Program-made: the position numbers and the translations under genes
NCBI GenBank assembly: GCA_030668875.1
Contig: DAOVER010000016.1
Coordinates: forward strand, 34,098-66,097
DNA from: Candidatus Heimdallarchaeota archaeon
GTDB taxonomy: Archaea; Asgardarchaeota; Heimdallarchaeia; Heimdallarchaeales; Heimdallarchaeaceae
Reading direction: 5' to 3'
Length of the DNA stretch: 32,000 nucleotides
Shown: piece after piece, positions 10,922-13,349 of the stretch
Layout of the letters: each line of letters begins with the position of its first letter
Numbering within the stretch: position 1 is the stretch's first letter
The notes under the pieces: generated by a model
The model's database searches: none
The model's input: the letters and a program-made list of their open reading frames with translations, nothing else
Told to the model about the DNA's origin: nothing

Positions 10922-11350
10922 GTCTATCTCTCGAAATCTTAAATATTAATGATTCTTGTTCTCCTAAACCATATTAAAGTTTTTCAAAAAACTCAATTGA
11001 ATAGAATCATAAACAGTCTGTTAAATTCTCTATCATATACTTTCATGCAAAAAACTACTGAAATAATTATTTTTGTAGCTGTAACAGCTTATGTGACAAA
11101 TATCTGTCTTCAGAAAAGATAAATTACAAGTTGAAAAGAAGACAATTTATCCTTCTTTCTTTCCACAAATGTTCGTTTAAATGATTCTATAAACGGGTAT
11201 ATCTTTTAAGTTAATGATTATGTGAACAAAGAATAACATGAGTTTTAAATACTAGCTAATACATATTACTTCGGCAAATTGTGGACGTGGAGAAGTAACA
11301 AAGAAAGTATATACATTTGATTACAATTTTGCTAAATATGAGGTATAAAA

Positions 11351-12451
11351 ATGCAAATTAGAAATAAATATAGAATTTCTCTGCTCATTGTTCTTATACT
11401 GAGTATGAGTGTGATAACAGCGATAACATCGCCTGTTATGGGAGTTACCATCGTGAAGATGGGAGATAATAATGCTATTGATAAAAGCATATTAGTAATT
11501 AGAGAAGATGTGCCAAATCCTTCAATCATGGAATATAATTCATTGGAATTTTCCTTGAGAATTAGCCATTGTTTTGGTCCTGTAATATGGATAGGGCATG
11601 GGAATGATCAGGGAATTACAACAGAAAATACCCAGATGTCTTGGGTTGAATTCGCTTCAAACATTGAAAAAACTCCTGCTAAAGATATAGTACTGTCTTG
11701 TGATTCTAAGAATCTAGTAAAACAAACAGATTTAGAAGAAATAGATGTGTTTACATTTGAAGGATCAATTGATGCAGTAATTGGAGGATTGTTTACATCA
11801 TATATAATAACTAGATCTCAAACTATTATCGACAAACTGCTTGTAAGAGCAATTGATATTGTATCAGGAATAGCTCAAAAAGAAGAGCTCGCAGTGGTAA
11901 TTGGTGATGGAGGTGGAGGAGGAACTACAACATCTACAGTTAATTACATTGTACGTAATCCTTTCGGTCCAGAAGGCGGATGGGGAATAGTAGAAACTAT
12001 ATGGAACTGCGGTAATCTGGCAATGGTTTTAATAGGCGCTTTACTTACCTTTTCATCATGCTGGATTGTGGTAAAAGTGAAATCAGTAATCAGCGCGGCA
12101 AGTGTAAATTTCTTTACTGCTGCGGCTAACTTCTTTGCTGTGCTATTTAATCATATGAGTAATGTTGCAATGATAGGTGGTGCGTTACTTGCCTTTTTAC
12201 CTGAAATAGTTATTTTTATCTGTACTAAACTGATCCCTGCAATAGCTTGGTTTCTTCAAGCTGCAGCAATTGCAGATGTGACTGCTCAAGCTGGGGTAAT
12301 AGCAACAACAGCTGGAACTGCTACTGCCCTTAAAGTATTGCAAATTATTTCAATAATTGCAACAGTTGTATGGTGGATAATAGGATCTATTTCGGATCTT
12401 ACTGATAAAGATGATATCTGCAATATGCCAGCTTGGATGTTTGGTGGATGA
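11351..12451 (+). CDS. Secreted protein: signal peptide, putative clan CD (caspase/CHAT-like) cysteine peptidase domain, poly-Gly linker, hydrophobic C-terminal domain; candidate toxin precursor
   Basis: SD GAGGT upstream; VIWIGHG (His83) and DIVLSCDS (Cys117); IGDGGGGGTTT linker; about 150 aa of Ala/Gly/Ile-rich helices with 4 Cys. Confidence 0.6.
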   Translation: MQIRNKYRISLLIVLILSMSVITAITSPVMGVTIVKMGDNNAIDKSILVIREDVPNPSIMEYNSLEFSLRISHCFGPVIWIGHGNDQGITTENTQMSWVEFASNIEKTPAKDIVLSCDSKNLVKQTDLEEIDVFTFEGSIDAVIGGLFTSYIITRSQTIIDKLLVRAIDIVSGIAQKEELAVVIGDGGGGGTTTSTVNYIVRNPFGPEGGWGIVETIWNCGNLAMVLIGALLTFSSCWIVVKVKSVISAASVNFFTAAANFFAVLFNHMSNVAMIGGALLAFLPEIVIFICTKLIPAIAWFLQAAAIADVTAQAGVIATTAGTATALKVLQIISIIATVVWWIIGSISDLTDKDDICNMPAWMFGG

Positions 12452-12503
12452 AATTAAACAATTCAAAAACATTAAAAGAATTGAATATGGAGATGGATTT
12501 GAA

Positions 12504-13349
12504 ATGAAAAGATCTAATTCATCTTCAAAGTTTTTTTCTCAAGATAAAGAAGATCTACAAATTTGGGGTTTCTCACGAAAAAAATCAATAAAAATATTAA
12601 TGCTGATAACACTCTTTCTGTTCATCTTAGTAACTCTTTTCCTATTATGGGGATTAGCAATTACTTCGAGGTATAGGGTATATTGGTATGATATTTTTAA
12701 TCTTAAAAGCTTCTTAATGGTTATTATTGCAGGGGGATGGATGAGTTTCGCTCCAAGTGCTATAGCGTTTTTATTGAAACCAAAGAAACGAGAAAGACGT
12801 TTTCTTTTAGGTATGAATTGGCTCTTAGCTATTATTGGAACAATTATTACAACAATAGCCTATGTTTTATTAATCATTTTTGTTTGGATTCCTTCCTTAT
12901 CCGTTTCTGATCAATTGATACCATCCTTAAAATATGGTGTACCAATTATCTTACCAGTAATAGTATGGCCTTCTGTTTTTATCCTTTGGTTCTCCTATAT
13001 TCTCTTAACGACATACACTAATATAGTAATTAATCAGAATATAAAGGAAATATTAGTTTACGGGCGCACAGCAAAAGGAGATAGATTCAGTTATACCTTT
13101 CCTCTTTCACCGGAATATCAGTTAGCAATTATGAAATATGATTTAAAAAACTCCCCTGAAAAATTCCAACGGTGGGGAATATTTTTAGAAACTGAAACGC
13201 AGTTAGTAAGACTCTACTCAGGATACGAAAAAGGAGTTAAACAATTTCTTGAAGAACTAGTAGCAATAACAAATTGGATAACAGTTACAAAGACAGATGA
13301 AGAACCACCAAATATATTAGAAATTTGTACTCCTAAAGGTTCCGTATAG
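12504..13349 (+). CDS. Membrane protein (about 4 TM plus C-terminal soluble, possibly PH-like domain); candidate immunity/partner protein
   Basis: Four hydrophobic segments then a soluble beta-rich tail. I prefer ATG 12504 (GGAG upstream) to the track start 12411, which overlaps the previous gene by 41 nt. Confidence 0.6.
   Translation: MKRSNSSSKFFSQDKEDLQIWGFSRKKSIKILMLITLFLFILVTLFLLWGLAITSRYRVYWYDIFNLKSFLMVIIAGGWMSFAPSAIAFLLKPKKRERRFLLGMNWLLAIIGTIITTIAYVLLIIFVWIPSLSVSDQLIPSLKYGVPIILPVIVWPSVFILWFSYILLTTYTNIVINQNIKEILVYGRTAKGDRFSYTFPLSPEYQLAIMKYDLKNSPEKFQRWGIFLETETQLVRLYSGYEKGVKQFLEELVAITNWITVTKTDEEPPNILEICTPKGSV

Follow-up and report, generated by a model that had tools for sequence, protein, structure and literature searches.

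A two-gene locus in a Heimdallarchaeaceae genome joins a caspase/CHAT-like peptidase head and a fast-diverging helical tail with a membrane partner: a candidate cell-surface conflict or recognition cassette

What is the role of an archaeal gene pair in which one product joins a putative caspase-like peptidase to a hydrophobic C-terminal part, and the other is a membrane protein? The question is raised by a stretch of 32,000 nucleotides (nt), here called the window, from Candidatus Heimdallarchaeota archaeon (positions 34,098 to 66,097 of the forward strand of contig DAOVER010000016.1, assembly GCA_030668875.1). Its first gene of interest encodes P0001, with an N-terminal peptidase domain (the head), a glycine linker and a helical C-terminal module (the tail), and the next gene encodes the membrane protein P0002. 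The initial annotation of the window had proposed that a secreted clan CD protease cuts itself to free a membrane-active toxin, as in halocin C8, and that its neighbour gives immunity. The open reading frame (ORF), motifs, linker, four cysteines, acidic tail, 52-nt gap and neighbour with four transmembrane (TM) segments that it described all lie at the positions it gave. On the evidence below, we give an even chance to a reading in which the pair serves cell-surface conflict or recognition as a diversifying cassette, akin to polymorphic toxin/immunity pairs. The toxin/immunity reading appears partly supported by comparative genomics, and its halocin-like release step does not fare well. The features of the locus are as follows, in window coordinates.

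11340..11344 (+), GAGGT Shine-Dalgarno-like motif, 6 nt upstream of the P0001 start codon; read from the sequence
11351..12451 (+), P0001 gene (head plus tail, 366 amino acids (aa)), stop codon included; ORF, translation, homologues and dN/dS (ratio of nonsynonymous to synonymous substitution rates)
11351..11437 (+), P0001 residues 1-29, basic N-terminus, hydrophobic helix and A-L-S-x-P-type motif; model helix and conservation
11438..11896 (+), P0001 residues 30-182, compact caspase/CHAT-like alpha/beta domain, clan CD type; AlphaFold2, VIA-align and AFDB
11597..11599 (+), His83 codon, GHG motif, predicted catalytic; conservation, after strand 78-81
11699..11701 (+), Cys117 codon, L-S-C-x-S motif, predicted catalytic; conservation, after strand 112-115
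11897..11980 (+), P0001 residues 183-210, Gly5/Thr-rich flexible linker; low predicted local distance difference test (pLDDT) values and low conservation
11981..12391 (+), P0001 residues 211-347, tail module, about five moderately hydrophobic helices; full-length model and hydropathy
12392..12448 (+), P0001 residues 348-366, acidic tail SDLTDKDD and then the ...MFGG C-terminus; alignment conservation
12488..12491 (+), GGAG ribosome-binding-like motif, 12 nt before the P0002 ATG; read from the sequence
12504..13349 (+), partner gene P0002 (281-aa membrane protein), stop codon included; translation, orthologs and dN/dS
12504..13028 (+), P0002 residues 1-175, four strongly hydrophobic TM segments; hydropathy scan and alignment
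13029..13346 (+), P0002 residues 176-281, soluble C-terminal domain; conserved residues

Both genes are real and not chance ORFs, because P0001 has many homologues (167 representatives at E<=1e-3 among 1.8 billion proteins) and because dN/dS, taken between the window and the orthologous locus L055 at a dS of about 0.43, is 0.14 in the head, 0.23 in the tail and 0.22 in P0002 (0.20 for P0001 overall), compared to 0.14 in the two flanking genes. The orthologs of P0002, at 80-85% identity, adjoin orthologs of P0001. The 52-nt gap runs from the P0001 stop (12451) to the P0002 ATG (12504), and this start was favoured over an in-frame ATG at 12411 because of the GGAG motif 12 nt upstream. Within P0001, H83 belongs to the motif VIWIGHG and C117 to DIVLSCDS; VFTFEGSIDAVIG corresponds to residues 133-145, and the linker sequence EELAVVIGDGGGGGTTTST to residues 178-196.

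The assignment of the head to clan CD, made by the initial annotation, is well supported by the modelled fold and the dyad; the domain comes nearest to CHAT and fits in no existing family. In the AlphaFold2 model (109 aligned domains; pLDDT 97.3, predicted template modelling score 0.92), the elements follow one another along the chain as b1-a1-b2-a2-b3-hairpin-a3-b4-short a-b5-a4-a5-b6, which matches the caspase order, with the hairpin at residues 88-97 and a final short strand at 179-181. In clan CD, the sheet order is 2-1-3-4-5-6, helices a1-a5 flank the sheet, a small hairpin lies between b3 and a3, and the catalytic His and Cys stand at the C-terminal ends of b3 and b4 (PMC4357240). In the model, H83-G84 comes directly after strand 78-81 (b3) and C117 after strand 112-115 (b4), which are the clan CD places. 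In an alignment of 111 full-length P0001 homologues, to which the conservation counts refer, C117 is present in 111/111 and H83 in 110/111, and the residues around them are nearly as constant: G84 in 104/111, G88 in 107, S119 in 108, and D141 in 106, with Glu in five more. As judged from this geometry and conservation, H83 and C117 would form an active catalytic pair.

Comparison of the head model with 48,161 PDB representatives by VIA-align points in the same direction. The top solved match is the SAVED-CHAT structure 8tl0 (Z 10.8, 140-141 of 153 residues aligned), about 2 Z above the next matches, which are unrelated LacI/PurE-type folds (Z 8.6-8.8 over about 110-125 residues); legumains (Z 7.5-8.4) and procaspases (Z 7.3) follow with 125-151 of 153 residues aligned. 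The published dyad of 8tl0, H375/C422, falls within the aligned range 306-486, His before Cys as in the head, in a comparison at the level of ranges. Foldseek against AFDB clusters returns family members first, followed by CHAT, gingipain, C80 and C14 proteins, and against the PDB its best match is a legumain at E 5e-3, mixed with PurE and flavodoxin folds, a result that alone is not decisive.

At the sequence level, neither P0001 nor P0002 has a significant match in Pfam, NCBIfam, PDB sequences, PADLOC or PHROG, and P0001 has no Pfam match at E<=1. The CHAT hidden Markov model (HMM) PF12770 matches 0/111 homologues and nothing in this genome at E<=10, and the Peptidase_C80 HMM PF11713 gives no match at E<=10; where C80 has its flap, the head model has helices at 142-154 and 158-172. 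The best profile-to-PDB sequence match is the cysteine protease domain (CPD) of MARTX, non-significant at E 1.2, with the first strand and helix aligned. Peptidase_C25 (PF01364) does not match P0001 and matches 2/111 homologues weakly (best E 0.008). One C25-type frame does occur elsewhere in the same genome: on contig C29 (L057:1144-2166, minus strand), a frame passes Pfam Peptidase_C25 at E 4e-5, with 23.5 bits against a cut-off of 23. When this relative is aligned to the family profile with hhalign (E 1.3e-3), the GHG and SC.S motifs of the two coincide. Its motifs are FIGHG and LSSCYS, its end is hydrophobic and helical, and its tail reads DFDPNN; a Gly-rich LDPGEGGGGGG lies upstream in frame, and no start codon precedes GHG. 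The frame is possibly a relative of the P0001 architecture that has decayed or been fused.

The N-terminus of P0001 is predicted to place the head outside the cell. Residues 2-26 form a helix in the model (pLDDT 86-96), with a hydrophobic stretch at 9-27 after a basic N-terminus, and an A-L-S-x-P motif is conserved at the end of the helix (S18, A24, L25, S/T26 and P28, the last in 86/111 homologues). Residues 1-29 are thus a probable Sec signal peptide or signal anchor. The initial annotation had extended a signal peptide to about residue 31; the hydrophobic helix and its conserved motif are in keeping with a signal, but the signal-peptidase site looks to be near residues 26-27. After the head, the linker is disordered in the model, with pLDDT below 50 at residues 186-203. 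It is the least conserved segment between close orthologs (68% identity), and a D-[PG]-G-G-G-G run is found in about 40% of homologues. The conserved L180, in strand 179-181, was considered as a substrate-like, Leu-specific self-cleavage site, and this reading was dropped because the caspase topology expects the antiparallel strand b6 at that place.

The C-terminal 186 aa of P0001 are 24% Gly plus Ala, contain four Cys and finish with SDLTDKDD...MFGG. The full-length model has tail helices at 213-234, 238-265, 271-294, 300-319 and 324-351 (pLDDT 48-87). They contain charged residues, and their hydropathy is moderate (Kyte-Doolittle mean 1.2-1.8), in contrast to values of 2-3 for the segments of P0002. 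Median identity across the family is 15% in the tail versus 25% in the head. On the other hand, several polar positions of the tail recur: E215 is conserved in 90/111 homologues, loop glycines are aligned with N267 and T325 in 91 and 63, and in the acidic end D349 is found in 94, D352 in 71 and D354 in 55, with Asn in 21 more. The pattern D..D.[DN] occurs within the last 35 aa of 58/111 members, compared to 3/869 background windows. By language-model similarity, the look-alikes of the tail are colicin, SseC and glycine-zipper clusters at 0.76-0.80, below the tool's reliability mark, of which the colicin and translocon matches are at noise level. A C-terminal Gly ends 29/111 members, often as V-G. 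In two longer members from other Asgard assemblies, P0085 (511 aa) and P0111 (643 aa), a Gly run leads into a Cys-initiated segment with weak HINT/intein matches (E 0.005-0.008); this HINT-like extension follows the acidic tail or, in one of them, an immunoglobulin (Ig) domain. We infer from the latter arrangement, which suggests as much, that the end of the tail is extracellular; the extensions also hint at a functional role in the family for a C-terminal Gly exposed by processing.

The partner P0002 has four hydrophobic segments at about 31-50, 72-90, 105-127 and 145-168, with hydropathy peaks of 1.8-2.95. Conserved residues are W128, P130, L132, P147 and L150 in the TM part (alignment A3), and K211, F248, E251, T256, W258 and E266 in the soluble end of about 100 aa, which is probably cytoplasmic by the positive-inside rule. 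The only fold lead for P0002 is a look-alike cluster of bacterial PH domains at 0.83, below the tool's reliability mark. Complex prediction of P0001(28-366) with P0002 gave ipSAE (interaction prediction score from aligned errors) values of 0.00 and 0.01, which are evidence neither way.

That the two genes form a module, as had been proposed, is borne out by its recurrence: P0004, a homologue 39% identical to P0001, lies in another genomic context, where a partner 36% identical to P0002 begins 4 nt after it, and P0005 has a P0002-like gene adjoining on the opposite strand. Sufficient flanking sequence was available for 30 loci; in 21 of them, an ORF with two or more TM segments follows in the same direction within 400 nt, and these ORFs fall into many unrelated clusters. 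Members of the V-G tail type tend toward a different partner family with six TM segments. The genome of the window itself carries a second pair on contig C65, at L002:639-1784 (381 aa, tail end ...DFLDQDSIAG) and 1885-2724, with a transposase-like ORF just upstream that runs off the contig end. The head of this paralog is 39% identical to that of P0001, its tail is barely alignable, and the gene that follows encodes an unrelated 279-aa protein with six TM segments.

Identities in 30-aa sliding windows show that heads and tails do not keep step. Compared to P0006, P0008, P0012 and P0017, P0001 is 40-60% identical in the head and 7-20% in the tail; compared to P0004 and P0005, it is 13-47% identical in the head and 40-63% in the tail. 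The crossover of identity is near residues 150-195. Similarly, the head tree places P0001 with P0006/8/12/17/22 (support 98/80), apart from P0004 and P0005. Module exchange between heads and tails is suggested, not proven, by these comparisons.

Spare copies are found in a relative of the same order, G029 (loci L052/L053; G029:C4:889000-916000), as a 27-kb island with one full family gene. It holds four head-truncated copies, all starting at a VKSSxxQRHFFLSCDS block, as well as three P0002-like genes and many small ORFs with 2-4 TM segments. Two of the truncated copies are 73-93% identical in DNA to the full gene over about 90-120 nt (about -60 to +30) around the block; upstream of this stretch, identity is at the random level, and downstream it decays. 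As read from the DNA alignment, this is the pattern that orphan cassettes with a retained recombination handle would leave. The island also has two further genes with four TM segments plus a soluble domain, of another family. Apart from the island, a tail-only fragment of 142 aa is found next to an 80%-identical partner at L005 (G004:C107), the head gene is split into 50 and 306 aa beside an intact partner at L056, and a solitary partner homologue, P0162 (40% identity), is found at L054. The gene upstream of P0162 was considered as a family member and rejected, as it has no family match in any frame.

With the head profile, the family is found in 123/399 Asgard genomes and 44/85 genera, with up to 9-10 copies per genome, and it is patchy within the window's own genus (11/23 genomes). 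The named members all belong to Heimdall-, Prometh(Loki)- or Hod-archaeota and without exception carry the annotation "hypothetical protein"; one near-identical homologue is labelled Candidatus Heimdallarchaeaceae. The head is also found at the start of longer proteins with PKD or Ig domains. The family is undescribed and has been seen so far only in Asgard genomes. A literature search, beyond whose reach lay the study of Makarova et al. (2019, mBio) on archaeal conflict systems, found no description of it, and no relative was found on viral contigs searched with P0001.

Based on the results presented above, the cassette would work as follows. The product of gene 1 would be exported by its Sec-type signal, so that the clan CD peptidase head is placed outside the cell, and the Gly linker would tether the head to a bundle of four to five moderately hydrophobic helices, ending in a conserved acidic D-x-x-D-x-D tail that is probably outward-facing. 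Gene 2 would provide a membrane protein of four helices, co-varying with the tail module of gene 1. The variable part, membrane-active or specificity-bearing, would be the tail, with P0002 as its cognate protector or receptor and the head as the processing peptidase. The mosaic heads and tails, the partner that tracks the tail type and the spare copies fit such a polymorphic-toxin-like cassette; for catalytic activity and any self-cut, for the membrane topology, for toxicity and for a protective partner we rely on inference. A wider form of the claim is more tentative, and we consider it possible rather than likely: that these are an Asgard-wide class of their own of polymorphic surface conflict or kin-recognition cassettes, with a minimal autoprotease head, a swappable membrane-active tail and a cognate membrane antidote.

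Several results weigh against a cassette of this kind. No toxin, immunity or defence model matches P0001 or P0002. The initial annotation had expected homologues with variable C-termini and variable downstream genes; both are indeed highly variable, and a relative carries the truncated array, but the tail, as judged from the alignment, is one homologous, fast-diverging module and not a set of unrelated toxin domains. Its conserved polar residues and acidic end bring it close to the conserved membrane anchor that had been named as the opposite outcome. Nine of the 30 loci have no downstream membrane ORF. The approximately unbiased (AU) test does not reject a single head clade for the tail type of P0001 (p 0.26), and faster head evolution could mimic mosaicism, because P0004 and P0005 are on long branches. 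In the comparison of close orthologs, purifying selection acts on tail and partner alike (dN/dS 0.22-0.23), with no sign of positive selection, and this genome, which is 92% complete, has two full pairs only, with no spare-cassette array found. Finally, because it is Sec-exported with four to five hydrophobic helices, the chain is expected to stay in the membrane of the producer, where the tail most likely resides, and how it would reach another cell is unexplained.

In a second explanation, P0001 is a resident surface ecto-peptidase that, for example, trims or matures surface or secreted proteins, its tail a polytopic anchor whose acidic end may bind metal, and P0002 a substrate, regulator or chaperone, with no antagonism involved. 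We regard it as rather doubtful, though as the strongest of the alternatives. In its favour, architecture and polar residues of the tail are shared throughout the family, and for hydrophobic helices after a Sec-type signal stable membrane insertion is the default expectation; one helix would be enough for an anchor, yet four to five are kept, and they diverge much faster than the head. The same head opens large PKD or Ig surface proteins and both genes are under purifying selection, as would suit a resident enzyme, but up to 9-10 divergent copies per genome, patchy within a genus, would not, and truncated spare copies with a common homology block are unexpected for a housekeeping enzyme. A metal-binding tail would agree with the Ca2+ dependence of several clan CD enzymes, namely metacaspases, gingipain and separase (PMC4357240); the tracking of tail type by unrelated partner families is left without a place in this explanation.

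The literal model of the initial annotation, in which a self-cut at the linker frees a diffusible, halocin-like membrane-active C-terminal toxin and the 4-TM neighbour protects the producer, is unlikely. The order of signal, caspase-like domain, linker and C-terminal module does fit the bacterial "releasing peptidases" (PMC3482391), and the linker is flexible and poorly conserved, but no cleavage site has been identified, L180 being best read as strand b6. The downstream membrane partner and the weak glycine-zipper or Bacteriocin_IIc Pfam matches of a few homologues would be in keeping with a released toxin; against this, P0001 itself has no similarity to halocin C8 or bacteriocin models (the halocin C8 and HalI models, TIGR04449 in NCBIfam and PF22862 in Pfam, match neither P0001 nor P0002), which leaves the halocin C8 parallel with no sequence link, and the colicin and translocon look-alikes of the tail are at noise level. 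Moreover, a 170-aa segment with four to five hydrophobic helices should insert on leaving the Sec channel and not diffuse. In fact, it is because these helices follow a Sec-type signal, and so are likely to insert in the producer's membrane, that a freely released peptide is argued against. An antiviral or abortive-infection module, in which the external head would sense, or be triggered by, a virus or foreign surface component and a partner-restrained tail would then perturb the membrane, is the least probable: prokaryotic defence often involves CHAT/caspase-like proteases (SAVED-CHAT and Craspase are examples), and the family is patchy, multi-copy and decay-prone, but there is no PADLOC or PHROG match, no relative found on viral contigs searched with P0001 and no defence gene nearby in the window, and the head is predicted to be extracellular, unlike the known defence CHAT proteases.

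If the cassette reading is true, the locus would represent a lineage-specific Asgard system for cell-to-cell antagonism or self-recognition, in organisms that are hard to culture and whose social biology is almost unknown. This would imply that the design of a secreted caspase-like peptidase, a variable end and immunity, which is mainly bacterial so far, arose or was rebuilt with new parts in archaea. In the more tentative, Asgard-wide form of the reading, polymorphic toxin/immunity systems of bacteria would have a native archaeal counterpart in the closest lineage to eukaryotes, with one of the smallest known caspase-fold domains at its core. Whatever the function, a head of 150 residues with a full caspase/CHAT-type fold and a conserved dyad provides a minimal clan CD model and bears on how caspase-like proteases evolved in deep time, close to where eukaryotes originated. 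Because the family is without a Pfam or NCBIfam model, hundreds of Asgard genes are annotated only as hypothetical.

The surroundings of the pair can be described briefly. The window has a guanine-cytosine content of about 31%, and the stretch is contained in marine-sediment metagenome DNA runs; no RNA run is among the sequencing runs listed as containing it. Between P0002 and a CitMHS transporter gene, a 163-aa ORF at window:13463-13954 (+) has a weak DUF3598_N match (E 0.008). It is without a counterpart in L055, L056 and L005, where P0002 and the transporter are about 150 nt apart, and it looks like an insertion specific to this genome. Upstream, window:8209-9510 (+) encodes a 433-aa exported protein with a weak PQQ/beta-propeller match and a C-terminal helix, and window:9503-10921 (-) a 472-aa polytopic membrane protein with no family assignment, which is syntenic in L055.

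Among known systems, the legumain/GPI8 proteases (PIGK, C13) share with P0001 an exported or luminal clan CD domain, GHG and C-x-S motifs and a C-terminal membrane tether. PIGK is among the Foldseek matches of the head, and C13-type structures align at Z 7.5-8.4 over up to 151 residues. However, C13 domains are of about 260 aa, there is no sequence-level match, and GPI8 has a single C-terminal helix and works in a multi-subunit complex; there is no evidence in P0001 for the transamidation of GPI8. The CPDs of MARTX and TcdA-TcdB (C80) resemble the head as small clan CD domains, and they are self-processing and reside in exported toxins. They are among the Foldseek neighbours of the head as well as its AFDB ones. 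In C80, an InsP6 (inositol hexakisphosphate)-binding beta-flap takes the place of helices a4/a5 (PMC4357240), whereas the head model keeps two helices at this position and PF11713 does not match.

The CHAT proteases (PF12770; 8tl0, Csx29/TPR-CHAT) have, like the head, His-Gly and small-residue-Cys-x-Ser motifs after hydrophobic strands in the same order, and many of them are among its neighbours in AFDB and the ESM atlas. The head is about half their size (150 aa, compared to a model of 289 positions) and has no HMM match. In addition, the known CHAT proteases are cytoplasmic and act in signalling or defence, whereas the head is predicted to be exported and is fused to membrane helices.

For the tail and its partner, pore-forming colicins offer an analogy only. 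They too have a homologous, diversifying helical domain and a cognate immunity gene with 3-4 TM segments, sometimes on the opposite strand, as is the partner in the relative at L006. Unlike P0001, however, colicins do not leave the cell by the Sec route, and they possess receptor and translocation domains; Pfam Colicin does not match, and the language-model similarity of 0.77 is at noise level.

The bacterial polymorphic toxins (Zhang et al. 2012, PMC3482391) provide the last comparison. These systems are reported to be rare in archaea in their classical form (PMC3482391), and they use unrelated enzymatic toxin domains where P0001 and its relatives have divergent versions of one hydrophobic module. 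The P0001 family is without RHS, filamentous or other delivery domains, and the G029 copies have their homology block within the peptidase domain, after the His motif and before the Cys motif. On the other hand, an export signal, a caspase-like peptidase, a variable end and a small gene directly downstream are common to both, and caspase-like "releasing peptidases" stand just upstream of the toxin domains in the bacterial proteins (PMC3482391). The likeness appears to extend to the mosaic of heads and tails, the tracking of the tail by the partner, the spare copies (in a relative) and the orphan partners.

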